Below are positions 2,694 through 17,538 of a stretch of 18,486 bases of DNA, piece by piece. Below the pieces are notes generated by a model that saw only the letters and a list, made by a program, of their open reading frames with translations, had not been told where the DNA came from and searched no databases. Source of the DNA: Chthonomonadales bacterium (GTDB taxonomy: Bacteria > Armatimonadota > Chthonomonadetes > Chthonomonadales > Chthonomonadaceae); assembly GCA_038217285.1 (NCBI GenBank), contig JBBQPO010000110.1, positions 1-18,486 on the forward strand. The letters run 5' to 3'. Positions within the stretch are counted from its first letter, which is position 1, and each line of letters opens with the position of its first letter. The position numbers were made by a program, and so were the translations under genes.

Positions 2694-2732
2694 GGTTGAT
2701 TGTGTCGTGGGTCTATTGGAAAGGTCGGCGAG

Positions 2733-4358
2733 ATGGACGGGCGAAAAAAACGACTGACAGGCTGCCTGCTTTTGCTCCTCGTAATGGTGGCTCTCCCAAC
2801 CTTCCTCATCCGGAGGCAGCTACGCCAGGATCGCCTGTCCGCGCAACTCATGGCAACCCTCAAAGAGGTACCCTCCCACTTCGAAATTGACTACGATGCT
2901 GAGGCTGAGAAAATTGGGCAGGGACGTGAGAGACTAAAGCAGGTGACCCGGAGAAAAGAAGTGCAGGTAGCGCGACTGCTTCAGGAAGGCGCCGACCCCA
3001 ATGTGCGCGACTTCGGCACGGTCAAACGCTCTTTTTGGGAGGAGGCGAAATTCCTTCTAAAGCAGATGTTCAAACATTCGCCGGCCAGCGCTTCTTTGCC
3101 GCGTTCCGCTCTGTCAATCGCCGTACAGGCCGACAACACCGTAATGGTTCACGCGCTTCTAAAGGCAGGCGCAAATGATGTCAACGCGGAGATAGGGACT
3201 ACGGATGGCCGTGATTATCAGTTTCCTCTCGTCAACTATGCCGCCAACGTCGGCAACCTGGAAATCGTGAAGGAGTTGTGTGCCAGAGGGGCCGACATTC
3301 ACAAACTCAATTCGGAGAGTGAGATCATCCTCCAATCTGCCCTGGAAAGCAGCGGCAGGTATGAAGTCCCTGCGAACAAGGCTGCCGATGTCGCATGGCT
3401 TCTTGATCACAGACGCCGAACGGAAATTTTTCATCTACTGCAGGCAAAGGGCGCGAAGTACGAGGCGAACTCAAAAACCGGACATGCCCTGCTGTTTGCC
3501 GCCGCCGGCGGCGATTTTCTCGAACTGACGCGTGAACTGCTTGTTGCAGGTATATCAGCCAATGCGAGGCCGGAATGGGTGGCTTACCCTCCCGAATTTA
3601 CGGCACTCGACTACGCAGTGACCAACGACGACATTGCTCTCGTTAAACTCCTCTTGCAGTATGGCGCCTCCATTGAAGATGCACAGTCCGAGGCTGCTAT
3701 TCTGTACGTGAAAAGTCCGGCGATGGCACGACTTCTCCTGGAACATGGCGCAGACATCCACGCGATTTCCAGGCGCGGGAAACGGGAAGGCGCAAATGCA
3801 TTGAACTTTGCCTGTATCAACGGAGATGCAAAAGTGATCTCGTTCTTGATCGAGCATGGCTTAGACGTCAATTCCACCAAAGAGTACAGCAGCCCGATAA
3901 CGGAAGCGGCGGAATACGGCGGCGTCGGGGCCGTTCGACTGCTTCTGAAACGTGGCGCAAAAGTCGGCCCAAAATCTCCGGGAGCCGATGCGCTCTACAT
4001 GGCGATTGCAGATTCCCACTTCGACAGTGCGAAGCTAATTCTGCGTTATGGCGCCGCCGTCAATTCGAAGGAAGGCAGTCCGCTTACAGAAGCGGCTAAT
4101 CAAGACAATTTCGATATGGCGCTCGAACTTCTCAAACGCGGGGCGAATGTGAATGCAGGCAGAGGCGAAGCGCTTGTCGCCGCCTGTGAAAGTTGTGACG
4201 AGGACCTCGTCGATCTGCTGCTCCAGTATGGCGCCGATCCTACGGTTCGCGCGAGCGATGGCACGACCGCCATCCAGACGGCGAGACAAAACGCCGATCC
4301 GCCGGAAGACGCCAACGGAATTATTGCGCTGCTGAAAGACTACGGCGCGAAACGGTAG
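2733..4358 (+). CDS. Ankyrin-repeat protein with N-terminal membrane anchor
   Basis: Many repeats of the type TAL..A...G...VKLLL..GADVN (e.g. TALDYAVTNDDIALVKLLLQYGASI, SPLTEAANQDNFDMALELLKRGANVN); basic N-terminus RKKR followed by a hydrophobic helix. ATG 2733 is more plausible than TTG 2700. Confidence 0.92.
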   Translation: MDGRKKRLTGCLLLLLVMVALPTFLIRRQLRQDRLSAQLMATLKEVPSHFEIDYDAEAEKIGQGRERLKQVTRRKEVQVARLLQEGADPNVRDFGTVKRSFWEEAKFLLKQMFKHSPASASLPRSALSIAVQADNTVMVHALLKAGANDVNAEIGTTDGRDYQFPLVNYAANVGNLEIVKELCARGADIHKLNSESEIILQSALESSGRYEVPANKAADVAWLLDHRRRTEIFHLLQAKGAKYEANSKTGHALLFAAAGGDFLELTRELLVAGISANARPEWVAYPPEFTALDYAVTNDDIALVKLLLQYGASIEDAQSEAAILYVKSPAMARLLLEHGADIHAISRRGKREGANALNFACINGDAKVISFLIEHGLDVNSTKEYSSPITEAAEYGGVGAVRLLLKRGAKVGPKSPGADALYMAIADSHFDSAKLILRYGAAVNSKEGSPLTEAANQDNFDMALELLKRGANVNAGRGEALVAACESCDEDLVDLLLQYGADPTVRASDGTTAIQTARQNADPPEDANGIIALLKDYGAKR

Positions 4359-5011: not shown

Positions 5012-5176
5012 GGGGTAGTATATCATCCCCACCTCGAATTATTCTTGCTTCGGTTTGCAGCGGCGCGGTCACCTCTGCCGCCCATTCTGCAAACCGCCTG
5101 GAAGAAACGAAGAACGACGACGTTCCCTCCTGACGATCTGCGTTCACTCGTTTTCCCCATAAGAAGGGAAGCGTCC

Positions 5177-8100
5177 ATGCCTTGTTTCGGGAATAGCCTC
5201 TCGCCTCGCTCTGTTTGGAGCAGAGGTTTCGCATCCGTTCTGTTCGCGCTCCTGCTGCTCGGGGGAGTGGGCCGTGTCGCCCGCGCCGCCGACGTCACGA
5301 AAGAGTTTCAGGACAAGTATCGCGAGATCTACGGTGCCGTAGACGCGGCACGGCTGCAGCAGACGGTGCAAGACCTCGGTAAGTTCAAGTCGCGTGTCGC
5401 GGGCTATCCCGACAGCGACAAAGCCGCCGACTATGTCAAAGGACAGATTCAGGGGATCCTCGGTCCCGGCAGCGTACAGGAAGACGCATACCATATCACC
5501 ATTCCTTATGATCTCGGTGTGGACGATCCGGCGAAGGGCGCGTATGTGCAGGTAGTGCCAACCCCCGGCGGAGCGGCAGCGACGAGCGCGACCTTGGCTG
5601 CGGCCCCCTTGCGGATGTATCCGCTCTGGCCCAATCTGGTCCGCACCCCGACCCTCCCCGCCAACGGCCTGACCGCCCCCCTTATCTATGTCCGAGACGG
5701 CAAACTTCGCAACTTCAACGGCAAAGATGTAGACGGCGCGGTCGTCATGGTCGATTTCAACTGCGCGGCGGAGTGGATGAACGCCCCGCGCCTCGGCGCG
5801 AAAGCCGTCATCTTCGTCGCCCCGACCACCACGATGCGCGGCGAGGCTGAAGCCAAGTTCATCTCGATCCCCATCGCCATTCCCCGCTTCTATATGACCA
5901 AGGAGGACGCCGCGCCCCTGCTTGCCCAGTGCGTCAGCGGGCGCGCCCCGACGGTCAAGCTCACCTGCACTATGCCCTGGGAAACCAAAACAGGGCGCAA
6001 CTTCATGGCGAAGATCGAAGGCTCTGACCCCGAGCTGAAAAAGCAAGTCATCGTCGTGCAGTCCTACTACGACTCCACCTCGGTCGTACCTGCCCTCGCT
6101 CCCGGCGCGGATACGACCTGCGGCATGGCCGCCATGCTCGAGATGATGCGCTACTTCAAACAGCCGGAGCACCAGCCGAAGCGTACCATGTGGTTCGTCG
6201 CGACCAGTGCGCATTTCCAGGCGCTGCAGGGTATCCGGGAATATGTGCATGCGCATATGGACGAATGGACCGCGCCCAGCCTCGTCGAATCCGCGACCGC
6301 GAAAGAGAACGCCGGGCGCGTCAGCGTGTGGCTGGTCGGCGCTCTGGTCCTGTTCGCCGTGCTGCTGGTCGTTCGGCTGGCGCGTAAGCTGGCGGAGGGC
6401 GAGAAGCGGTTCAATGGCCCGACGGTCTTTGTCACGGTGTCCCTGTTCCTCATGCTGTTGCTCAACCTCGGCTTTTTCGCGCAGCCACGCGACAAGTCGG
6501 CGCATGAACCCCCCACGATCTACCTCTGGGCCGGGCTCGACCTCACCAGTCAGACACAGTCGTTCGGAATCTTCTATAAAGGCTGGTTCTTCGACTATCG
6601 CGAGGACATCCAGGGTCGCTTCAGCGACATCGCCCGCGTCTGCCGCGAGAACGCCGAGAAGGTCGGCACCACGCTTGGATTCAACTCAAAACGCTATTTC
6701 AACGACGGTGTCAACCCGGTAGACGGCAAGAACTGGCGCAACTTCATCCCCGGCAAGCCCGCCTTCGACTCCGAAGTCGTCACGGTCGCCGGCGGCAACG
6801 GCATCACCTTCGCCTCCACCGACGACAGCCGCTCCCTCGTAGACACGCCGTTCGATACCCCGGACAAGGTCAATATCGCCAACCTCGCGCAGCAGGTGAA
6901 GCTTCTCGACTGCCTGATGTGGCACATCGTGACCGATACCAATGCTCCCGGCGACGTGAACGCGCAGCGCATGCCGATCACCGATCCCTCCAAATGGTCC
7001 CGTATGGCGCTGCAGGGCGGCTTCGCGACGGTGCAGGGCCGGGTGCAGATGTTCAACCCGCGCAAATCCTTTATCGCCAACTCCGACCCCGCGCTCTCCG
7101 ACACCCTCGTCGTTGTCCGCAACCGCAATAAGTCGTTTATGGGCGTGCGCGGCAACATGGTGCAGCGCACCGAGTGGACCACCCCCGAGCGGATGCACGA
7201 GCTGACCTTCAACGCCGACGGCAGTCTGCGGAAAAACCTCGAGGGAGAGGCGCTGGCCAACTCCGGCCCGCCGATCCCGGCCTCCAACTTCTTCGCCTTC
7301 CACGGCATCGCTCCGCTCACGGCCTATGGCAACAACAAAGCCACGCTGCTCGCCGCCTACCATCTCGACTATCGCGACGAGCGCACCGACCCGAAAGATC
7401 CCACCGGCAAGACCAAAATTCCGAACCCCCTGCGCGGTGAAATCGACTACGCACCCGACCTCGGCAGCACCGGCGCGAAGTATGTGCCGCTGGACGTCAT
7501 GGTCACCACCGCCGTCAAAGAGACGCCGGTCATCGTGTTCCGGTGCGTTCCGACCGCCATCTACGACCTCGTCGATCAGCAGTCGCTGCGCGCTCTGACC
7601 GGCATCGACATCTACGATGGGGAGAGCAACGGCGAGCCGCGCATGTATGGCTACGCTATCGACCCACAGGACCCCTCGCTGGTCGGCTCCTATGTCGAGG
7701 ATGTCGCCGTCCTGTTCTCGCAGCCCGGCTCACGTCTGAAGATCGCCATGAACAGCGGCCCCGGCGCGACGCGCCTGCTGCTGATCAACTCGCAGTACGA
7801 CGCCTCCGATCCGTTCAACCTGAAGAACCTCTCCCCGGAGCCCGAGGGCAAAGGCTACCTTGTCGCGGGCAGCACAAAGGATGCGCAGAATGCCGACCTC
7901 CTGGGCGACCTGACGGACAAGGCCACTGACGATACGGGCGAGATTGCCAAATCCGGTGCGATCTACGATACCGCCCTGCACGTCGCCGAAGATATGCACC
8001 GGCTCGACGACTTCCGGATGCGCCGTCTGGCCAAGTACCGCATCCTCGATATGGACAGCGACGAAGGCGTGCCCGGCCTGCACAAACTGGCGGCAGGCGC

Positions 8101-10363
8101 GATCGCGCAGTCGAAAATAGACCTGAAAAACCGCGACTGGGAGCGTTTCGACGCCGACTCCCGCGCCGCCTGGGGCTACGAGAGCCGTGCCTACCCTGAT
8201 GTCCAGCAGACCGCGACCGATGTCGTGCAGGGCGTCCTCTTCTATCTGGCCCTGCTGCTGCCTTTCGCCTACTTCATGGAGCGGCTGCTGTTTGGCTTCT
8301 TCGACCTCAAGCGCCAGTTGGGCGCTGCCGCGCTGATCTTCCTGGTAATCTTCATGATGTTCCGCGCCGTACACCCGGCCTTCGACATCACCATGAACCC
8401 GATCATCGTGCTGCTGGCGTTCATCATGCTCGCGCTCTCCGTCATCGTCATCGGCCTCATCTCCGGCAAGTTCGAAGAGCAGTTGAAGCAGATGAACCAG
8501 AGCGCCGGCGGCATCCATCGCGCCGACATCGGGCGCGTCTCGGTCGCCCTCGCCGCGTTCAATCTCGGCATCTCCAACATGCGGCGACGCAAAGCCCGCA
8601 CCTTCCTCACCTGCGTCACGCTCGTTCTACTCACCTTCACCGTGCTGTCGTTCACCTCGGTCGTGCAGACCATCCGGTTCAATCAGGTGCCCGCCCCGAG
8701 CGACCACGGCCCGCGCTACAACGGCATCATGATCCGCACCGCCATGTGGGACCCGCTGCAGGAGCCGGCCTACCGTCTGCTGGCGGACGAGTACGGACGC
8801 GAGTACTCCGTCGCCCCCCGCGCCTGGTTCTACGGCACGCAGATGGGCGAGCAGTCGTTCCTGACCCTGCGCCGCGCCGACAAGTCCTACGATGCCAAGG
8901 CGATGGTCGGCCTCACACCGGCGGAGGCGAAGATCACGCATCTCCAGGAGGCGCTGCTGCCCGGTGGGCGCTGGTTCGAGCCAGGGGATGTCTATACGAC
9001 GATCCTGCCCGACTCCGTGGCCGCCGCCCTGCGCGTAGACGACGCCGATGTCGGCAAGGCCAAAGTGACCTATAGCGGCGTCGAGTACACCGTCATCGGG
9101 ATCCTCGACTCGCAGAAGCTCAAAGACATCGCCGACCTCGACAACGAGCCGCTGACCCCCGTCGACTTCATCGCCATGAACAAGATGTCGAAAGGCGCGA
9201 GCGGCGGCGGCGACCAGGGCTTCAAAGAGTACACCCACCTGGAGCCGGACTCGGTCTTCTTCATTCCCTACCAGACCGCGACCAACATGGGCGCGCAGTT
9301 GCGCTCCATCGGCATCGACTTCGCCCAGAAGGCCGAAGTGCTGAAACGCCTCAATCCGTTGATGCACCGTCTTGGTCTCAACCTCTATGCCGGACAGATC
9401 ACGCATCCCGAAATCGACGGCCCCAAGCGCGGCACCATCGAGCGCTACTCCTCGATCGCCGCTACCAGCGGACGCGGCCTGGAACTGGTCTTTTTCCCCA
9501 TTCTGATCGCCTCGCTCATCGTGCTCAACACGATGCTCGGCTCCGTCTACGAACGCATCAACGAGATCCACATCTTCTCCTCTATCGGTCTGGCCCCAGC
9601 GCATATTGGCATGCTCTTCATGGCGGAGGCGATGGTCTATGCGATCCTGGGCTCGGTGGCGGGCTACTTGCTCGGACAGTTCACCAGCAAACTGCTGGTG
9701 CTGACGCACTGGCTGCCGGATCTCTATCTGAACTTCTCCAGCGTCAGCGCGGTCATGACCACCCTGATCGTTGTTGCGGTCGTGCTGCTCTCGACGGTCT
9801 TCCCCGCTCGCAAAGCGTCGGAAGTCGCCACCCCCTCCGTAGACCGCACCTGGAAGATCGCCGATCCGCAGGGCGACCACTGGATCATCCCGCTGCCCTT
9901 CGCCGTCACGGGTGAGCAGGCGGCCGGTCTGAACGGCTTCCTGAGCGAATGGTTCCAGGCCTACGAGGAGTACAGCATCGGCGACTTCGTGACGCAGGGC
10001 GTGACCTCGGAGGAGTTCGAACACGCGAATGGCAACGCCTATCGCGTGAAATGTATGACCTGGCTCGCGCCCTTCGACCTGGGTGTCTCCCAGCGCGTCG
10101 CCATCGAGACGACGCCGACCGACACGCAGGACGTGTTCGAGATCCGCCTGCATATCGACCGTGAGTCCGGCGACATCTCCAACTGGAAGCGGGTCAACCG
10201 CCGCTTCCTCAACACGCTGCGCAAACAGTTCCTGATCTGGCGCACCCTCAAACAGTCCGAGCGCGAGCGCTATCTGCTCGCCGCCGAAACCGCCGCCATG
10301 CCAAAACAGGAGACCGAAGGCGCACCCGGCCTCGGAGGCGTAGAGCCCTCCCCCGCCGGATAG
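5177..10363 (+). CDS. Giant fusion: signal peptide + PA/degenerate M28 peptidase-like domain + extracytoplasmic region + type VII ABC (FtsX/MacB-like) permease
   Basis: Signal peptide ending VARA|AD; PA-like segment (APLIYV...DVDGAVVMV...LGAKAVIF); M28-like VVQSYYDS...APGAD...AAMLEMMRYF...PKRTMWFV; three-TM block at ~8230-8465; elbow helix plus TM1 (ISNMRRRKARTFLT); periplasmic core domain; FtsX motif SVYERINEIHIFSSIGL...MLFMAEA; PARKAS; soluble C-terminal tail. ATG 5177 with AAGGGAAG upstream is preferred over TTG 5045. Confidence 0.88.
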   Translation: MPCFGNSLSPRSVWSRGFASVLFALLLLGGVGRVARAADVTKEFQDKYREIYGAVDAARLQQTVQDLGKFKSRVAGYPDSDKAADYVKGQIQGILGPGSVQEDAYHITIPYDLGVDDPAKGAYVQVVPTPGGAAATSATLAAAPLRMYPLWPNLVRTPTLPANGLTAPLIYVRDGKLRNFNGKDVDGAVVMVDFNCAAEWMNAPRLGAKAVIFVAPTTTMRGEAEAKFISIPIAIPRFYMTKEDAAPLLAQCVSGRAPTVKLTCTMPWETKTGRNFMAKIEGSDPELKKQVIVVQSYYDSTSVVPALAPGADTTCGMAAMLEMMRYFKQPEHQPKRTMWFVATSAHFQALQGIREYVHAHMDEWTAPSLVESATAKENAGRVSVWLVGALVLFAVLLVVRLARKLAEGEKRFNGPTVFVTVSLFLMLLLNLGFFAQPRDKSAHEPPTIYLWAGLDLTSQTQSFGIFYKGWFFDYREDIQGRFSDIARVCRENAEKVGTTLGFNSKRYFNDGVNPVDGKNWRNFIPGKPAFDSEVVTVAGGNGITFASTDDSRSLVDTPFDTPDKVNIANLAQQVKLLDCLMWHIVTDTNAPGDVNAQRMPITDPSKWSRMALQGGFATVQGRVQMFNPRKSFIANSDPALSDTLVVVRNRNKSFMGVRGNMVQRTEWTTPERMHELTFNADGSLRKNLEGEALANSGPPIPASNFFAFHGIAPLTAYGNNKATLLAAYHLDYRDERTDPKDPTGKTKIPNPLRGEIDYAPDLGSTGAKYVPLDVMVTTAVKETPVIVFRCVPTAIYDLVDQQSLRALTGIDIYDGESNGEPRMYGYAIDPQDPSLVGSYVEDVAVLFSQPGSRLKIAMNSGPGATRLLLINSQYDASDPFNLKNLSPEPEGKGYLVAGSTKDAQNADLLGDLTDKATDDTGEIAKSGAIYDTALHVAEDMHRLDDFRMRRLAKYRILDMDSDEGVPGLHKLAAGAIAQSKIDLKNRDWERFDADSRAAWGYESRAYPDVQQTATDVVQGVLFYLALLLPFAYFMERLLFGFFDLKRQLGAAALIFLVIFMMFRAVHPAFDITMNPIIVLLAFIMLALSVIVIGLISGKFEEQLKQMNQSAGGIHRADIGRVSVALAAFNLGISNMRRRKARTFLTCVTLVLLTFTVLSFTSVVQTIRFNQVPAPSDHGPRYNGIMIRTAMWDPLQEPAYRLLADEYGREYSVAPRAWFYGTQMGEQSFLTLRRADKSYDAKAMVGLTPAEAKITHLQEALLPGGRWFEPGDVYTTILPDSVAAALRVDDADVGKAKVTYSGVEYTVIGILDSQKLKDIADLDNEPLTPVDFIAMNKMSKGASGGGDQGFKEYTHLEPDSVFFIPYQTATNMGAQLRSIGIDFAQKAEVLKRLNPLMHRLGLNLYAGQITHPEIDGPKRGTIERYSSIAATSGRGLELVFFPILIASLIVLNTMLGSVYERINEIHIFSSIGLAPAHIGMLFMAEAMVYAILGSVAGYLLGQFTSKLLVLTHWLPDLYLNFSSVSAVMTTLIVVAVVLLSTVFPARKASEVATPSVDRTWKIADPQGDHWIIPLPFAVTGEQAAGLNGFLSEWFQAYEEYSIGDFVTQGVTSEEFEHANGNAYRVKCMTWLAPFDLGVSQRVAIETTPTDTQDVFEIRLHIDRESGDISNWKRVNRRFLNTLRKQFLIWRTLKQSERERYLLAAETAAMPKQETEGAPGLGGVEPSPAG

Positions 10364-10410
10364 TCAGGGAGCGATTGAGAACGGGATTTCAGTCCCGAAA
10401 GAGGGGGTAG

Positions 10411-11574
10411 ATGGGCCGACCACGGACGCTGTTGATTCTGTTCTGTCTGGGTGTGGTGACTGCCGGTTCGGCGCGGGCCGATAAGGCAGGCGAAGCTCTG
10501 CTCGACCGGTGCATCCAGGCCGAGACGAAAGCGGCGCTGCTCCAGGCCGACTACTCCTCGGAGATCGTGCGCGGCCGGCAGACGGTCAAGGTTAAAGGGC
10601 ATTTCGTGCTCAAGAAGCCGAACTTCGCGCATATCGTCTACTCGGGCTCAGGCGGTGAGAAGGACGAGACGGTTCACTCGGATGGCCGCAAACTGCTGCA
10701 CTACATGGCGTCGGAGAAACAGTATACGCGTGAGACGCCCGATATGAGTGGCGGTAACGTGGTGCGCATGGCGAGCAGCCTGGAAGCCATGGTCTTTTTC
10801 AATCCGGATCTGCTCAACCAGTTCCGTGGGCTGGGATCGGGGCTCAAGATCGTCGGGACGGTGAAGATCGGCGGGACTGCCTGTCAGGCGCTGCAGGCGA
10901 CGGTGCGCGACGGCAATATCTACAAAGTCTATATCGGCCCCGATAACCTGCTGCATGGGATCTCGCAGATCATGGGCAAGGGCGATACGCGGCAGGTGCT
11001 GGAGAGCCGTCTGACGGGCGTGGGGATGGATGCGGGCAGCGCGGCCAAGCCCCTGGCCTGGACCCCTCCCGCCAAAGCGAAGCTCGTCGAGCAGATCACC
11101 CTGCAAGCCTCCTCCGGGGGCAGTGGGGCCAGCCCGGCGGCAGAACTGCTGGCGGTCGGCGCCGTCGCTCCCGCTTTCGATCTGGCGATGGTCACCGGCG
11201 AAAAGATGGCGCTCGCGACCCTGACGAAGCCGACGAAGGTCGTGCTGGTCAACTTCTGGGACTATGGCTGAGGCTTCTGCCGTGAGGAGTTGCCTCACCT
11301 GAATAAGATGCTGGCGGAGTTCAAAGGCAAAGGGTTCGACATCGTGACGGTGGACATCGGCGACAGCGCCGCCACCATTCAAAAGTTCTGGCAGGAAAAA
11401 GGGCTGCGCCTCCGCGCCCTGATGGACACCGACGGCAAAGTCGCGGAGAAGTACAAAGTTTCCGGCGTACCCTGCAACTATCTGATCGGAAACGACGGCA
11501 AAATCATCGCCCGCTTCGAGGGCTTCGATGAGGCGGGTATCCGGCAGGCGTTGGCGAAAGCAGGCATTCAGTGA
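10411..11574 (+). CDS. Exported LolA-like/TlpA-type redoxin fusion, predicted selenoprotein (UGA at 11269-11271 read as Sec; 387 aa)
   Basis: ORFs 10411..11271 and 11290..11574 are in the same frame. Read-through gives KVVLVNFWDYG-U-GFC-REELPHL, a thioredoxin U-x-x-C, and later the cis-Pro motif GVPCNYLI. N-terminal AxA signal peptide and LolA-like motifs (GHFVLKKPN, VHSDGRKLLHY...KQYT, WTPPAKAK). GAGGGGGT RBS. Confidence 0.88.
11269..11303 (+). promoter_or_regulatory. Bacterial SECIS-like hairpin
   Basis: After the UGA, GTGAGG (11282-11287) / loop AGTTG / CCTCAC (11293-11298) forms a perfect 6-bp stem. There are 16 nt between UGA and loop, the loop has G at position 2 followed by U, and a lower TTC/GAA pairing is possible. 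Confidence 0.7.
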
Positions 11575-11598
11575 ACAAGAGAAGGGGGACTCCGTAGC

Positions 11599-13647
11599 GT
11601 GGCGGAAGAAAATGAGATAGCCCAAATACGGCAGCAGGTCGAGACCGAATCCAGGGAAGAGGGCGCAGAGACTTCTGAGCCCCAGTTCGAAGAGGGATTC
11701 AGCAGTAAGACCGTCATCGGCGCCCTGTTCGTCGGGTTCATTATGCTGCCGGGCGCACTCTACCTGGGCCTCGTGGCGGGTCAGGGACTCGGCCCGGCGG
11801 CGGAGTGGGTCACCATCGTCCTGTTCTCCGAGATCATGCGGCGTTCGTTCCTGCCCATGAAGCGCCAGGAGATCTACATCCTCTACTATGTCGCGGCCGC
11901 TCTTACCGGACTGGCGGCGGACAAAGGGATCTCCGGAGGACCGTTCGGTGGCCTGATCTGGAACCAGTACTTCATCCAGTCTCCCCAGGCGGCGATCGTC
12001 GCGCGGGAGATACCGCACTGGGTCGTGCCACCTGCCGGCTCGGCGGCGCTTCAGCACCGTACCTTCTTCGATGCGGCCTGGGCGGTGCCAATCCTACTGC
12101 TGGTCGTTGGGGAGGTGCTGGGCCGTCTGAACTGGATGAGCGCCGGCTATTTCCTGTTCCGCGTTACGTCGGACATCGAACAGTTGCCGTTCCCCATGGC
12201 CCCCGTAGCCGCGTCCGGCGCGACCGCGCTGGCGGAAGCGGCGAGCAAAGAGGAGTCGTGGCGGTGGCGGGTCTTCTCCATCGGCAGCGTCATCGGCATG
12301 ATCTTTGGCTTCTTCTATATCGCGATCCCGGTCTTTACCGGCGTCGTGTTCGGCAAAGCCTTTACGCTGATACCCATTCCCTTCTTCGACACCACCACGA
12401 ACACGGAGACGATCCTGCCAGCCGCGTTGACCGGAATCTCCGGAGACCTCACGAAGGTGCTGACCGGATTCATCATCCCGTATCATATCGTGCTGGGTTC
12501 GCTGATCGGGTCGCTGGTCTGTCGTGTCGGCCTCGCGCCCATCCTCTACCATTTCGGCGCCTTCGGCAACTCGGAGAGCAACGGCTGGACACGGGGCATG
12601 GACGCCATCTTTACCAACCAGGCCATCAACATCAAGTTCTGGACCTCGGTCTCCATCGGCTTTCAACTGGCGATCGCCATCATCGGATTCTACAGCGTCT
12701 TCCGTTCGCTGTCCGCCTTACGGTCGCAGATGAAGAACCGGGGTCTGCAGGCCCGCATCCCCAAAGGACGCGGCGACCTGCCCCTCTGGATTCCGCTCTG
12801 CATCTGGCTCGGTGTCACAATCTTCTATATCGGCCTGACAAAGTACCTTCTGAACTACGATGGCGAACGCTTGCATCAGAACCACGCCTTCCCAATCTGG
12901 ATCCTGGTCTTCTATGGCCTTATCTGGTCTCCCATCAACTCCTATGTCTCCGCGCGTATGATCGGTATCACGGGCTCGGGGGTCTCCTTCCCATTCATGA
13001 AGGAGGTCTCGATCATGAAGTCGGGCTACCAGTACGCCGACATCTGGTATGCGCCGATTCCGCTCAACGACTACGGGGGGTTCGCGCAGAAGTTCCGCGA
13101 GGTCGAGTTGACCGGCACGAAGTTCACCAGTGTGGTCAAGGTCGAAGCGTTGATGCTGGTCCTGATCCTGCCCGCGAGCTTCGTCTTCTGGGCCTTCTTC
13201 TGGCACACCAGTCAGATACCGTCGTCGCAGCATCCCTACGCGCAGCACTTCTGGCCGATCCATGCGACCTTCCAGGCGATGTTCAACACCATCAACAAGC
13301 AGTCGGGCGGCATCGCCTGGGTCAAAGAGGCTATCGACTTCAAGCGGATCGTCGGCGGTGTGATCGTTGGGTTAGGCCTCTACGGCGTGTTCGGGCTGTT
13401 CAAGATCCCGATACTCGTCTTCTACGGCTTCATAGGGGGATCGGGCGCCTTCCCACACGATGTCATTCCGACCTTTATCGGGGCGGTGCTGGGCCGTCGC
13501 TACTTCGCCAAGCGGTTCGGACTGGAGAACTGGCGTATGTACACGCCGGTACTGCTGGCCGGGTTCTCATGCGGCACGGGCCTCGTCGCCATGGCCTCGA
13601 TCGCCCTCGCCCTGATCGCCAAATCGGTCAACTATCTGCCGTTCTAA
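11599..13647 (+). CDS. OPT-superfamily (oligopeptide/YSL-like) multi-pass transporter
   Basis: 682 aa with many hydrophobic helices; OPT-like N-terminus (KTVIGALFVG...ALYLGLVAG...), internal EQLPFPMAPVAA..ATAL motif, C-terminal LLAGFSCGTGL. GTG start with GAAGGGGG RBS. Confidence 0.75.
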   Translation: MAEENEIAQIRQQVETESREEGAETSEPQFEEGFSSKTVIGALFVGFIMLPGALYLGLVAGQGLGPAAEWVTIVLFSEIMRRSFLPMKRQEIYILYYVAAALTGLAADKGISGGPFGGLIWNQYFIQSPQAAIVAREIPHWVVPPAGSAALQHRTFFDAAWAVPILLLVVGEVLGRLNWMSAGYFLFRVTSDIEQLPFPMAPVAASGATALAEAASKEESWRWRVFSIGSVIGMIFGFFYIAIPVFTGVVFGKAFTLIPIPFFDTTTNTETILPAALTGISGDLTKVLTGFIIPYHIVLGSLIGSLVCRVGLAPILYHFGAFGNSESNGWTRGMDAIFTNQAINIKFWTSVSIGFQLAIAIIGFYSVFRSLSALRSQMKNRGLQARIPKGRGDLPLWIPLCIWLGVTIFYIGLTKYLLNYDGERLHQNHAFPIWILVFYGLIWSPINSYVSARMIGITGSGVSFPFMKEVSIMKSGYQYADIWYAPIPLNDYGGFAQKFREVELTGTKFTSVVKVEALMLVLILPASFVFWAFFWHTSQIPSSQHPYAQHFWPIHATFQAMFNTINKQSGGIAWVKEAIDFKRIVGGVIVGLGLYGVFGLFKIPILVFYGFIGGSGAFPHDVIPTFIGAVLGRRYFAKRFGLENWRMYTPVLLAGFSCGTGLVAMASIALALIAKSVNYLPF

Positions 13648-13736: not shown

Positions 13737-14558
13737 ATGCAAGTTGATGCTGTTCTAAATATCGTGCGCGGGGTCTGCATAGGGCTGTGTGTGCTGGCGT
13801 TCGCGGCAGGCGCGGCAGTCGGCTTTCGAACCAAGGATACCGGTCGCAGCGGCCGAAATCTGGTGGTGGCGGTCGGGTTGATCGCGCTTTTGCTCATCGG
13901 AGGAACGTATCCGCTGGCGACCGTGGTAGGCCCGATCATCGTTATGCTGGCGGGCTATCTGAGTTGCGCCCTGGGGGCGGCATTGCTCGGCGGCTACGGC
14001 GCGGGGCGCAAACGCAGCAAGGGGATTCCGAAGGGAGTCGCGCTCTATCTGGTCGTGACGGGCCTGGTGACGGCGCTTGCGCTGGCCAGGATGTTCGGGC
14101 TGCTCAATCCGCTCGTTGCGATCGACAAGCAGTTCCATACGGAAAAGTACGCTGCGAAAACGGATAAGAACTGCGCGGAGAACCTGCAGAGCCTCTACTT
14201 CGCTTTCGGGAAGTATGTCGAGTACAACGACGGCCTGCCGCCGGCGGAGAGTTGGCAGGACCAGGACGACCTCAAGGCCGCCATTCAGAAAGACGAGTGG
14301 CTGCACTGTCCGGCGGTCTCGAACCGGCACGACAATCAGTTCGGTTATGCGTACAATGTCGCGCTGTCGGGACGCAAGCTCCAGGGCAAAAAGCTGAACA
14401 AGATGCCGGACGCGGCTACAACGCCGCTGCTCTACGACTCGACGAATCTGGCGAAGAACGCGCACGACAGCCAGACCAGCCTGCCGAAGCCGGGACGACA
14501 CGGCGGCAAAAACAATATTCTATTCTGTGACGGTCATATCGAGAGTGTAGCTCCGTAG
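13737..14558 (+). CDS. Membrane protein with C-terminal DUF1559-like / H-X9-DG domain
   Basis: About four N-terminal hydrophobic helices; then KNCAENLQSLYFAFGKYVEYNDGLPP, LHCPA, YAYN and an exact H-GGKNNILFC-DGH (14499-14537). Confidence 0.82.
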   Translation: MQVDAVLNIVRGVCIGLCVLAFAAGAAVGFRTKDTGRSGRNLVVAVGLIALLLIGGTYPLATVVGPIIVMLAGYLSCALGAALLGGYGAGRKRSKGIPKGVALYLVVTGLVTALALARMFGLLNPLVAIDKQFHTEKYAAKTDKNCAENLQSLYFAFGKYVEYNDGLPPAESWQDQDDLKAAIQKDEWLHCPAVSNRHDNQFGYAYNVALSGRKLQGKKLNKMPDAATTPLLYDSTNLAKNAHDSQTSLPKPGRHGGKNNILFCDGHIESVAP

Positions 14559-14642
14559 TAACTCTCTATCGTCTCACAACGTGCGTTTGCAAAAGAGGGG
14601 GCGGGCACATTCGGCGTCTGCCTCGAAGAACGGTTTTATTTT

Positions 14643-15713
14643 ATGGCGGTTCACGTGGAAAAGCGCGGGGAGTTGGCGGACGTGGCGAGCGCGGAAGTGC
14701 TGCCGACAACGACGGTGGTGGGATGGCAGGGCGTTCGGTTCCAACTGCCGCCCGAATGGAACGTCAGCGCGTTCTCGATGGATCGGGACAACGGCTCGCT
14801 GCGCGTAGATGCGCCGGGCAGCAGCAGTCTGACGGTACAGATCCGGTGGATGAACGCGGCCAAGCCGCAGAGAGAGGGGCCGCCCACGGCGTACCACTAT
14901 CTCGCGCCGCTGTTTCGAAAATGGTTCCGACGGCCGGACCCGCCGGTGCCGAAGACCGACCTGAAAGCCAATATCGAGCGCAGTCTGAAAGAGACGGCGA
15001 AGCAGGCGAAGAAGAACAAGGCCAGCTTTGAGAGCACGATCCGCGCGGAGAAGACCGAAGGCAGGGACAATGAGCGCAGCTCGATCAACTTTTCGTGGAT
15101 AGACGCGGGACGCGGACAGGGCAAGATCTGGCAGTGTTCCGTCTGCAACCGGATCGTTATCGCGCAGGTGGTCGGGCTGGCGAAAGACCAGGCGGCGATT
15201 AGCGCCGTGGCGTCGCAGCTCTTCGCCACCCTGGAAGACCATCCGACCGACGGCTACGACCTGTGGGCGCTCTACGATCTGCAGATCGGCATTCCGGAAG
15301 ATTTTCGGCTGGAAGAGCAGAAGCTGCTCTCCGGCTATCTGCATCTGAGCTTCGCGCGCGGCGGCGAGAAGATCATCGTGGACCGGTGGGGGCTGGCGAA
15401 CGTGACGCGCAAGAAGTTCAGCCTGGCCGACTGGTTCGCCAACCACGCGTTCGTCCGGCTGAAACGCCTGACGAAAGACGAAGAGACGCTCTACGATCAT
15501 GAGGCCATCCACTATGTCGGCAGCCTCAGCTTCTTCGACCGTCTGCGCCTGCTGCGAGACGCCAAGACGTCGCTGCGCCGCTTCCCGACCCGCTACGAGG
15601 GGGGCTTATGGGAGTGCGTCGATTCGAACAAGCTCTACGCCGTGCAGGTGCTGCACAGCCAGAAGACGGAAGGACTATGGGACGAGGTTACTGACCGATG
15701 CGTTTGCCACTGA
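14643..15713 (+). CDS. Hypothetical cytoplasmic protein with internal duplication and Cys/His motifs
   Basis: 356-aa ORF with GC3-rich codon pattern inside the operon; no signal peptide or TM; two similar halves (WQGVRFQLPPEW...WQCSVCNR...LEDH and LYDLQIGIPEDF...WECVDSNK...CVCH). Confidence 0.78.
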   Translation: MAVHVEKRGELADVASAEVLPTTTVVGWQGVRFQLPPEWNVSAFSMDRDNGSLRVDAPGSSSLTVQIRWMNAAKPQREGPPTAYHYLAPLFRKWFRRPDPPVPKTDLKANIERSLKETAKQAKKNKASFESTIRAEKTEGRDNERSSINFSWIDAGRGQGKIWQCSVCNRIVIAQVVGLAKDQAAISAVASQLFATLEDHPTDGYDLWALYDLQIGIPEDFRLEEQKLLSGYLHLSFARGGEKIIVDRWGLANVTRKKFSLADWFANHAFVRLKRLTKDEETLYDHEAIHYVGSLSFFDRLRLLRDAKTSLRRFPTRYEGGLWECVDSNKLYAVQVLHSQKTEGLWDEVTDRCVCH

Positions 15714-16135
15714 AGATGCGCCTCTACTACGGAATCGGACGCTATCTGCCATTTCTGAAGATTCGTCCGCCGGATGTCGATAGGCAGGCGACGCTGACGC
15801 TCCGGCCCGGCCGGAACGCTCTGCTGACCTGGGAGAAGCGCGAGACGGGCGGTACACTGCTGACGGTGCCGCAGAACGCCAAAGCGGGCCGAATCACCAA
15901 AACGATGGCGAAATGGCTGCGCGCTCCCACCGAGCGCCAGGTCGAACTGGACGAGGTGGGCGCCTATGTGTGGGAACTGTGCGATGGCAGTCATACCGTC
16001 GAGACAATCGTCCAGAAGACGGGCAGACAGTATAAGATGAACCGACGCGAGGCAGAAGTCTCCGTCACGATGTTTCTGCAGATGCTGCACGAGCGTAATT
16101 TCATAGGCTTCTATAAAAAAGTCAAAAAGAGTTGA
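15698..16135 (+). CDS. PqqD-family / RiPP recognition element (RRE) protein
   Basis: ELDEVGAYVWELCDGSHTVETIV...Y...EAEVSVTMFLQMLHERNFI fits the PqqD pattern; GAGGT RBS; overlaps the upstream gene by 16 nt. Confidence 0.85.
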   Translation: MRLPLKMRLYYGIGRYLPFLKIRPPDVDRQATLTLRPGRNALLTWEKRETGGTLLTVPQNAKAGRITKTMAKWLRAPTERQVELDEVGAYVWELCDGSHTVETIVQKTGRQYKMNRREAEVSVTMFLQMLHERNFIGFYKKVKKS

Positions 16136-16148
16136 GGGAAAATAACCT

Positions 16149-16775
16149 ATGAGCGATCAATCTATCCAGCAGCCCATTCAGGCTTCCATCAAGGTGCAGA
16201 AGCAGGTTTCGCTGCGCTTCTCAAAAGCCTGGGAGATCACGATCAAGAGCATTAAGATACGCTTGGCCCGTTCGCTTATCACGGCGGCCGGTATCGCCCT
16301 TGGTATCGCCTTCTACAGCTCGGTGCGGGCCGCCGGTCTGTTCCCGTCGGAGGGGGTCGGCGCGGAGGCCCTGGCGGCGGCGCACCGGCAGCAGTGGCTG
16401 GCGGTCATGGCCCTTATGGTCTGCTTCGTCGGTATCATGAACTCCATGCTGATGTCGGTGACGGAGCGGTTCAAAGAGATCGGCACGATGAAGTGCCTCG
16501 GAGCCCTGAACCGCGACATCATCATGCTCTTCTTCCTCGAAGCCATGCTCATGGGCCTGACGGCCTCGTTCCTGGGCTGGCTGGTCGGCTGGCTCATCGT
16601 GGTGGTCATTCACCTCTTCACCGGCGGCTTTCAGCCCGCGTTCATCGGCGGTTCGCTCGTGCAGATGTTGCTCTCAACGGGCATCGGCGTCGCGATCACG
16701 CTGCTGGCGGGGATTCCGCCCGCCATCAACGCCGCGCGTATGGCTCCCGCCGTCGCGCTGCGCTCGTCCATCTAA
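16149..16775 (+). CDS. Minimal FtsX-like (type VII ABC) permease lacking a large periplasmic domain
   Basis: KSIKIRLARSLITAAGIALGIAF (elbow + TM1), GIMNSMLMSVTERFKEIGTMKCLGA...LFFLEA, PAINAARMAPAVALR; only ~25 aa between TM1 and TM2. Confidence 0.92.
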   Translation: MSDQSIQQPIQASIKVQKQVSLRFSKAWEITIKSIKIRLARSLITAAGIALGIAFYSSVRAAGLFPSEGVGAEALAAAHRQQWLAVMALMVCFVGIMNSMLMSVTERFKEIGTMKCLGALNRDIIMLFFLEAMLMGLTASFLGWLVGWLIVVVIHLFTGGFQPAFIGGSLVQMLLSTGIGVAITLLAGIPPAINAARMAPAVALRSSI

Positions 16776-16800
16776 TATCAAAAGAAAGGGTTCCTAATTC

Positions 16801-17538
16801 ATGGGCGCCAATGAGTATGTGGTTCGCACAAAAGGCCTGATCAAAGAGTTCACGATGGGCGATGAAACCCTCCGCGCCCTGAACGGCGTGGATCTGGACA
16901 TTCGACGTGGCGAGTATATCTCGATCATGGGCCCTTCCGGCTCCGGCAAATCGACGCTGTTCAACGCCATCGGCGGCCTGGACAAGCCGACTTCCGGCTC
17001 GGTCTTCATCAACGACGTCGATATGGCGCAGCTGGATGCCTCCGAACTGGCCTATTTGCGCTGCCACACCATCGGCTATATCTTCCAGTCGTATAACCTT
17101 ATCCCCGTTATGACCGCGCTTGAGAACGTGGTGCTGCCGACGATCTTCGCCGGAATGCCCACCGACGAAGGCGTCGAGCGCGGTATGGAGATGCTCAACA
17201 AGGTCGGCCTGGGGCATCGCTTCCACCACCGTCCCACGGAGCTCTCTGGAGGCCAGCAGCAGCGCGTCGCCATCGCCCGTTCTCTGGCGAACCGACCCGC
17301 CATCGTCCTCGCCGACGAGCCGACCGGCAACCTGGATCTGAAGACCGGGACCGAGATCATCGAACTGCTGCGCGAGTTGAACCGCAATGAAGGCGTGACG
17401 ATCATCTCGGCGACCCACGACTATAAAATGGTCGATGTTTCGGACCGTGTCGTCTGGATTCGAGACGGCCGTATCGCCAAGATCGAAGAGCGCGCCGACA
17501 TCGATATCACCGTCGGCGAGATGCACGTCGAAGAGTAG
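16801..17538 (+). CDS. ABC transporter ATP-binding protein, LolD/MacB/FtsE type
   Basis: Walker A GPSGSGKST, IGYIFQSYNL Q-loop, LSGGQQQR signature, Walker B IVLADEPTGNLD, ATHD switch. Confidence 0.97.
   Translation: MGANEYVVRTKGLIKEFTMGDETLRALNGVDLDIRRGEYISIMGPSGSGKSTLFNAIGGLDKPTSGSVFINDVDMAQLDASELAYLRCHTIGYIFQSYNLIPVMTALENVVLPTIFAGMPTDEGVERGMEMLNKVGLGHRFHHRPTELSGGQQQRVAIARSLANRPAIVLADEPTGNLDLKTGTEIIELLRELNRNEGVTIISATHDYKMVDVSDRVVWIRDGRIAKIEERADIDITVGEMHVEE

Follow-up and report, generated by a model that had tools for sequence, protein, structure and literature searches.

A probable exported selenoprotein of Chthonomonadales that joins a LolA-like domain to a ResA/TlpA-like thioredoxin fold

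Predicted UxxC selenoproteins of the thioredoxin fold (TlpA- and Prx-like), with selenocysteine (Sec, U) at the N-terminal nucleophile of the redox motif, are long-catalogued families (PMC13188914, Table 1; PMC1794560, Table 1). The approach described for them in selenoproteome papers (as set out in PMC13188914), namely the pairing of Sec with Cys in homologues together with truncation at the Sec codon, is the one used here. We analyzed an 18,486-nt stretch, contig JBBQPO010000110.1 of assembly GCA_038217285.1 from a Chthonomonadales bacterium (the window), and conclude with good confidence that positions 10411..11574 of its forward strand are a single gene for a 387-residue exported selenoprotein. 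Like the catalogued UxxC proteins, the product has a PF00578 thioredoxin fold, a predicted Sec at the N-terminal nucleophile, many Cys homologues, and a candidate bacterial Sec insertion sequence (bSECIS) right after the UGA. Unlike them, its redoxin is the C-terminal half of a LolA-like fusion, encoded in a MacB/FtsX cluster of Chthonomonadales. The word "LolA" is absent from that review (PMC13188914), and our comparison with the families of that review is by description rather than by alignment to reference accessions. What is new is the LolA-like fusion and the Chthonomonadales lineage; UxxC TlpA-like selenoproteins and the recoding principle were already known, and the finding leaves the knowledge of recoding and of thioredoxin-fold selenoproteins unchanged.

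Among characterized proteins, ResA of Bacillus subtilis, TlpA, and CcmG/DsbE are the best sequence and fold matches of the redoxin half and share with it a CxxC-type motif followed by acidic residues, as well as export, which is predicted in the target. The target differs from them in having a predicted Sec for the first Cys, an extra LolA-like domain, and subfamily scores below cut-off. The N-terminal fold resembles LolA of the LolCDE system, and the neighboring genes likewise encode a LolD-like ATPase (240 bits to TIGR02211, cut-off 308) and FtsX/MacB_PCD parts. However, the domain is only 12-18% identical to LolA structures (TMt 0.56-0.63) and scores below the cut-off of DUF2092, and, unlike LolA, it is fused to a redoxin, and its presumed permease partner is 1772 residues long and includes an M28 peptidase-like domain. 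The ResA-like WAxxUGC selenoproteins (NCBIfam NF041054) also carry Sec in the redox motif, whereas the motif here is DYG-U-GFC, and membership in that family was ruled out at 42.7 bits against a cut-off of 300. A peroxiredoxin proper was ruled out as well: no PxxxT precedes the redox residue (NFWDYG-U-GFC), and the best named matches are ResA, DsbE, and TlpA. Our literature search found no LolA-like/redoxin selenoprotein fusion or Chthonomonadales selenoprotein in print, and pairing selenocysteine with DUF2092 in the search returned nothing.

The frame opens at ATG 10411, behind a Shine-Dalgarno-like GAGGGGG (10401..10407), and runs through ...LVNFWDYG into an in-frame TGA (11269..11271), followed by GFCREELPHL and, in total, 100 open codons up to the true stop, TGA 11572..11574. 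With TGA translated as U, the coding sequence comprises 387 codons with Sec at codon 287, and this read-through product aligns over its whole length with complete Cys homologues of 380-410 aa. The internal TGA aligns with the Cys of the homologues and would specify Sec287 at the N-terminal nucleophile position of U-G-F-C, and the TGC at 11278..11280 encodes Cys290, the resolving Cys of the UxxC motif. Under translation table 11 the gene is split into a 286-aa open reading frame (ORF; 10411-11271) and a 94-aa ORF that starts at TTG (11290-11574) and lacks a CxxC because its start lies past the second Cys of the motif. Public records carry the two halves as separate proteins, the N-terminal one as a 286-aa "hypothetical protein" or "outer membrane lipoprotein-sorting protein" and the C-terminal one as an 88-aa "peroxiredoxin" or "cytochrome biosis protein". 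The preliminary description, made from the letters of the window, had located a TGA at the first Cys of a thioredoxin motif, and its coordinates and the context NFWDYG-TGA-GFCREELPHL are both exact. It had also proposed that about 100 further codons complete the fold, that the downstream 94-aa ORF has no active site of its own, and that gene callers would split the gene; all three points agree with what we found, the Pfam redoxin domain (residues 249-375) spanning the TGA.

We next consider the homologous column. A protein search against a collection of clusters at 90% identity gave 78 hits, of which the first 46, the window's protein among them, were aligned or placed in a tree; the weaker rows P0047-P0079, outside alignment and tree, are mostly multidomain or redoxin-only, a few with a precomputed DUF2092 hit. 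We observed that 18 of the 46 rows, the window's included, stop one residue before the column of the first Cys. Seventeen of these end in ...NFWDYG (74-98% identity) and one, P0046, ends in ...NFWSYF (44% identity), so that the truncation point of the window's protein is shared by 16 further 90%-identity clusters at 74-98% identity. Full-length proteins (374-410 aa) with Cys at the column (CGFC, CAFC, CVFC, CGPC, and similar) make up 23 rows, and the remaining five are four with Phe at the column and one garbled fragment. P0032, P0035, P0038, and P0040 form a clade of full-length LolA-like/redoxin proteins with F-A-P-C and a Cys seven residues upstream (LLCFW); from their sequences, the active site may be shifted or single-Cys.

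The same pairing was seen in DNA. A scan of genome contigs gave 80 loci (L001 onward), and the active-site pattern was matched in 75 of them: TGA occurs in four (L001-L003 and L010) and TGC or TGT in 71. In L001-L003, from Chthonomonadaceae/Chthonomonadales metagenome-assembled genomes (MAGs) and with 77-84% aa identity to the window gene, the homologous codon is TGA, followed by an open and conserved frame. In L004-L008, more distant orthologues at 39-45% identity to the target, it is TGT or TGC. The preliminary description had asked whether homologues carry Cys or TGA in this column, and both the proteins and the DNA loci do; its worry that all close homologues might have TGC or TGT is answered by L001-L003, where orthologues differing at 15-23% of residues keep the TGA.

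A fourth TGA was found in L010, a Fimbriimonadales MAG, in a gene for a stand-alone exported redoxin of 167 residues (10019-10522) with the motif NFWFYG-[TGA]-GGC, a sequence-based second candidate selenoprotein of the phylum. The L010 redoxin gene is flanked by genes for a dienelactone hydrolase and a cytidylyltransferase. A regular-expression scan of the window and L001-L010 for other TGA-joined ORFs with redox motifs gave many hits, apparently spurious in GC-rich DNA; the convincing ones were the target and L010 only.

The frame downstream of the TGA bears the marks of translated sequence. The four Sec-type genes (the window and L001-L003) are equal in length and free of insertions or deletions. 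Over their six pairs, the ratio of nonsynonymous to synonymous substitution rates (dN/dS, Nei-Gojobori) is 0.027-0.141 for codons 297-387 and 0.124-0.166 for codons 25-286; therefore, the part after the TGA is constrained at least as much as the part before it. This purifying selection supports read-through, as had been claimed from the window alone. A search with residues 288-387 recovered 13 small proteins (88 or 94 aa), one of them the window's own; the other 12 are 90% clusters of C-terminal fragments at 73-97% identity, called "peroxiredoxin" where named. In several cases the length of the longest contig is the same for such a fragment and for a truncated N-terminal ORF (32154, 13709, 22090, 25219, and 2683), and one NCBI contig of 28,503 bp carries both halves under adjacent accession numbers, one 286 aa long and named "hypothetical protein", the other 88 aa long and named "cytochrome biosis protein". 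The candidate restart sites are a TTG at 11290, abutted directly by GGAG, and an ATG at 11308 that has no Shine-Dalgarno sequence; independent initiation of the downstream ORF appears unlikely on this reading.

Directly after the TGA we observed a constraint that acts on nucleotides rather than on the peptide. Codons 287-296 (TGA GGC TTC TGC CGT GAG GAG TTG CCT CAC; 11269..11298) form a 30-nt block that is identical in the window and L001-L003, with synonymous changes sitting just before and just after it. This is the longest invariant codon run of the gene (10 codons; the next is 6), in which 27% of codons are invariant overall, and 13 of 20000 shuffles produced a run of at least 10. Where the four genes share a residue that has degenerate codons, its codons are identical in 9/9 cases inside the block versus 34.8% outside (P ~7e-5). 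Within the block lies a SECIS-like hairpin, GUGAGG-AGUUG-CCUCAC (11282..11298), with a 6-bp stem and a 5-nt loop that has G then U at positions 2-3; it begins 10 nt past the UGA, its apical loop is 16 nt from the UGA, and on its own it folds at -8.8 kcal/mol. The bacterial SECIS consensus, as given in the legend of Fig. 2 of PMC13188914, has a loop of 3-9 nt, a stem of 4-16 bp, a G within the first two loop positions, a distance of 16-37 nt from the UGA, and a minimum free energy of -7.5 kcal/mol or below, and the window hairpin agrees with that legend on every count. Folding of the 42 nt that begin with the UGA gave -14.6 kcal/mol (z -3.26), and none of 200 shuffles was as stable; the same test on L010 gave a long hairpin at -21.9 kcal/mol (z -4.0). 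In contrast, the five Cys-type orthologues (L004-L008) have z of -1.34 to +1.08 and no hairpin, and L007 and L008 use other codons for the same CREELPHLN peptide. No such hairpin follows the true stop at 11572..11574. The recoding proposed in the preliminary description thus gains a SECIS-like hairpin directly after the TGA, frozen at synonymous sites.

The read-through product is LolA-like and ResA/TlpA-like in fold and falls outside all curated subfamilies. Residues 1-23 (MGRPRTLLILFCLGVVTAGSARA; 10411..10479, forward strand, as are all features of the gene) have the basic n-region, hydrophobic core, and AxA of a signal peptide, with predicted cleavage at ARA|DK. A23 and D24 are invariant in the 22 sequences of the alignment that served as input for the AlphaFold model, in which residues 1-20 form a disordered N-terminus (pLDDT < 50); the N-terminus thus looks like a signal peptide for SPase I, and the protein is probably exported. 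The LolA-like domain follows (residues ~24-232; 10480..11106), then a Gly/Ser-rich flexible linker (residues 233-244, SSGGSGASPAAE; 11107..11142; pLDDT < 50) and the ResA/TlpA-like thioredoxin-fold domain (residues 245-387; 11143..11571), the latter assigned by Pfam, a PDB sequence search, and Foldseek.

The model has a mean pLDDT of 80.6 and a pTM of 0.62. Its residues 25-215 form a helix and a long antiparallel sheet, with pLDDT mostly 80-95 in the LolA-like domain, and residues 257-383 form a thioredoxin fold in which strand 277-283 is followed by helix 288-303, with the U/C at its start. For the C-terminal domain, Pfam AhpC-TSA (PF00578) scored 76 bits against a cut-off of 26 (E 3.1e-21; residues 249-375), and Redoxin (PF08534) was likewise above cut-off over the same residues. 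Foldseek matched this domain to ResA 1su9 (E 7.6e-13, TMt 0.89, root-mean-square deviation 1.8 Å), and the PDB sequence search gave ResA structures at E 1.4e-18. The top NCBIfam ranks are ResA, DsbE, StoA, and TlpA, all far below cut-off (bits/cut-off 88.4/170, 54.5/123, 52.2/210, and 44.7/230, respectively). For the N-terminal domain, Foldseek gave LolA 8v1k (E 1.7e-11, TMt 0.62) and further LolA structures, 4ki3, 7z6w, 1ua8, and 6f3z, the last a LolA-LolC complex (E 1e-10 to 1e-11, TMt 0.56-0.63). Pfam DUF2092 (PF09865) reached 16.2 bits, below its cut-off of 21.2, and some homologues carry a precomputed PF09865; PF03548 (LolA) gave no Pfam hit in the target. The signal peptide, LolA-like domain, and redoxin named in the preliminary description are hence all recognizable, the two folds from model and fold search and the signal peptide from the sequence.

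The alignment also draws attention to other Cys residues. In the LolA-like domain, C34 is nearly invariant and C158 is invariant. In the thioredoxin fold, Pro354 is followed by an extra Cys355 (GVPCNY; 11470..11475); we take Pro354 to be the cis-Pro by analogy with the ResA/TlpA family. Cys355 is present in the Sec clade and in the two Cys forms nested within it, and is Thr in distant Cys forms; lying near the Sec, it might serve as a third redox-active residue.

In a tree of the N-terminal domain (46 rows), the Sec forms make up one clade of 20 rows with support 100/100, containing 17 U rows, two nested Cys rows, and one garbled row; P0046 is a separate U row. Of the nested Cys rows, P0002 is sister to P0017+P0018 (97/93) and P0003 is sister to P0016 (93/93). 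The tree, which has a midpoint root only, requires at least 3-4 state changes, and the simplest reading of it would be one gain of Sec with two reversions to Cys, and a further gain elsewhere. Such a history would offer a natural experiment on Sec versus Cys in an exported redoxin. At E <= 1e-3, exhaustive searching of the 50%-identity representatives yielded 56,731 proteins, of which we classified the best 150. The complete LolA-like plus redoxin architecture is present in 55 of the 150, and 49 of those 55 have CxxC; seven stop exactly before the Cys column (P0016, P0082, P0086, P0087, P0125, P0178, and P0218; 32-81% identity); and 88 have other architectures. The fusion is therefore common and the Sec form recurrent, so that the LolA-redoxin combination, which the preliminary description did not recognize, is in its Cys form widespread. 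The 16 related 90% clusters and six further 50%-identity representatives also amount to a recurring annotation error with a simple fix.

We hold recoding of the UGA, with production of the full-length protein, to be highly probable and, judging from sequence features, Sec to be the probable inserted residue. A number of observations weigh against this view. None of selA, selB, selC, and selD lies within the window or the flanks of L001-L003, and the literature search found no publication that ties Chthonomonas to selenocysteine. ARAGORN reported no tRNA of any kind for the window and L001-L009, and no tRNA-Sec for these or for L010. The sole support that we found for Sec machinery in the phylum is in PMC13582414, which describes Sec-type hydrogenases with selABCD and a canonical SelC in Armatimonadota MAGs of other classes; "Chthonomonad" has no occurrence in the supplement of that paper that we searched. 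As for the hairpin, its 16-nt spacing is the shortest that the consensus allows, an alternative pairing that takes in the UGA itself (UGAGGC/GCCUCA) is favored at minimum energy, the 65-nt fold is without significant stability (z -0.71), and in the minimum-energy fold of L010 the consensus G is missing from the loop. Compensatory changes in the hairpin are absent among the four Sec-type orthologues, and covariation does not prove its structure because the element is invariant in all four sequences. Rfam gave no SECIS match, with chance snoRNA/sRNA matches only at E <= 10 around the TGA, and at gathering threshold its one match in the whole window was the 5S rRNA. Finally, the orthologue in a further locus, L009 (8973-9562), matches residues 11-140 and 317-387 only, the linker and active site being missing, while the neighboring genes are intact; it may be a decayed copy or a misassembly, and decay would mean that the protein is dispensable in at least one lineage.

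Conserved TGA, hairpin, and Cys homologues are a signature common to the insertion of Sec and of Cys, and they would equally be left by recoding of the UGA via SECIS and SelB but with Cys delivered by a tRNA(ReC)-like (SelC*) tRNA, to give an ordinary CxxC redoxin. Such tRNAs are on record, beside canonical SelC, in all five of five Armatimonadota genomes with UXXU-type hydrogenases (PMC13582414), which also counts against Sec. However, those genomes belong to other classes and carry canonical SelC too, a costly recoding is hard to explain when one base change (TGA to TGC or TGT) encodes Cys, and exactly that change was made by two nested lineages; we regard Cys insertion as quite unlikely. 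A different possibility is that the TGA is a true stop, with a 286-residue LolA-like protein as the functional product and the 88/94-aa ORF separate or untranslated, which is how the gene stands in public records and in the output of gene callers. As Sec is generally inserted with low efficiency, a truncated product probably coexists with the full-length form. Nevertheless, downstream dN/dS is 0.03-0.14 and the phase is never lost, codons 288-293 are conserved though they lie ahead of any possible restart, and the restart sites at 11290 and 11308 are poor. A separate C-terminal product would be without a signal peptide and both active-site residues, and the truncated product would end in an incomplete thioredoxin fold, residues 245-286 forming its first strands only. 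Ends at the exact Cys column in independent lineages (32-45% identity) are also unexpected for ordinary stops, and we consider a true stop very unlikely. We give scarcely any weight to a recent nonsense mutation, a pseudogene, or a sequencing error: nothing speaks for these specifically, although L009 illustrates that the gene can decay or be misassembled, and the same TGA stands in three independent assemblies, the same truncation in 16 further 90% clusters, with purifying selection downstream. Genome-wide reading of UGA as sense (Trp or Gly) is as good as excluded because the internal TGA is the sole in-frame one among the 12 ORFs of the window (none in the other 11) and TGA terminates five of the 12, including the conserved C-terminus of the target.

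Insertion of Sec at this UGA would imply the use of Sec in Chthonomonadales, and L010 would imply the same in Fimbriimonadales. We propose that the hairpin acts as a bacterial SECIS that recruits SelB with Sec-tRNA(Sec), so that Sec takes the place of the nucleophilic Cys. The signal peptide, of the general secretory (Sec-pathway) type and cleaved at ARA|DK, would carry the protein across the cytoplasmic membrane, leaving a mature protein made up of a LolA-like beta-barrel, the Gly/Ser linker, and the ResA/TlpA-like domain with U287-G-F-C290 as its active site. The enzyme would alternate between selenol/thiol and selenenylsulfide as an extracytoplasmic thiol:disulfide oxidoreductase, most likely working as a reductant in the manner of ResA, TlpA, and CcmG, and would probably be recharged by a CcdA/DsbD-type membrane protein encoded outside the window. 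The LolA-like domain probably has one of two roles, binding of a hydrophobic or lipidated ligand or docking to the neighboring MacB/FtsX transporter at its periplasmic domain, and either would link the redox step to the gene cluster described below.

The gene is the second of a cluster of eight whose order is common to L002-L009, L006 ending within the third gene; the preliminary description had spoken of a transporter operon, and the conserved cluster is of the MacB/FtsX type. Across the syntenic loci the neighbors are 57-97% identical versus 39-84% for the target. Gene 1 (5045..10363, forward strand like the whole cluster) encodes the 1772-residue membrane protein, with M28 peptidase-like, MacB periplasmic core, and FtsX parts by Pfam and hydropathy; its likely start is Met45 rather than the TTG at 5045, and its identity in L002-L009 is ~58-91% by segment. 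The target (10411..11574) is followed by gene 3 (11599..13647), which encodes a 682-aa polytopic membrane protein with no Pfam or NCBIfam hit. In an Atlas feature search this protein scored 0.98 against clusters named "peptide transporter family", the first of which has OPT on 33% of its members; this is a lead only toward an OPT-like peptide transporter.

Genes 4-8 (13737..17538) were assigned by Pfam, NCBIfam, and hydropathy, and their order is kept in L002-L005 and L007-L009. Gene 4 encodes a 273-aa protein with four transmembrane segments and a weak C-terminal H-X9-DG match, and gene 5 a 356-aa protein of no family, with a CxxC and a C-terminal CxC, that matches hypothetical-protein clusters only. 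Gene 6 (15698-16135) encodes a PqqD-like protein, gene 7 (16149-16775) an FtsX-only permease, and gene 8 (16801-17538) a LolD/MacB-type ATPase. Loose Pfam searches of the unassigned neighbors gave nothing, and the window annotation contains no cytochrome c maturation genes nearby.

Permease parts of the MacB/LolC type next to a LolA-like domain suggest a docking like that of LolA with LolC. By extension, the LolA-like domain might dock on the periplasmic core of the 1772-residue M28/MacB/FtsX protein as LolA does on LolC, coupling a selenium-dependent redox step to ABC-driven extraction or export of lipidated or peptide cargo in a new envelope machine of Chthonomonadales; we offer this as a speculative and rather doubtful model. 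The PqqD-like chaperone and OPT-like transporter in the cluster would hint at peptide cargo. If the model held, the clade would have gone over to Sec because this step calls for a reductant that is faster or better able to resist oxidation. Independently of it, the gene draws attention to a strongly conserved, uncharacterized envelope gene cluster.

The remaining observations concern the surroundings of the gene. A promoter and terminator scan of 10200-11800 gave no signal above chance. A 469-aa antisense ORF (10648-12057, reverse strand) overlaps the target and its neighbor and is most likely an artefact of GC-rich DNA, as the sense frames are the conserved ones. Farther upstream, the window holds a lone 5S rRNA gene (331-447, 83.7 bits), presumably the end of an rRNA operon, and a gene for phosphoserine transaminase SerC (1520-2605; 470 bits, above cut-off), which also lies upstream of the cluster in L005, L006, and L008. 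Between SerC and the cluster, a 552-aa ankyrin-repeat protein is encoded at 2700-4358, and its gene is duplicated in L002.

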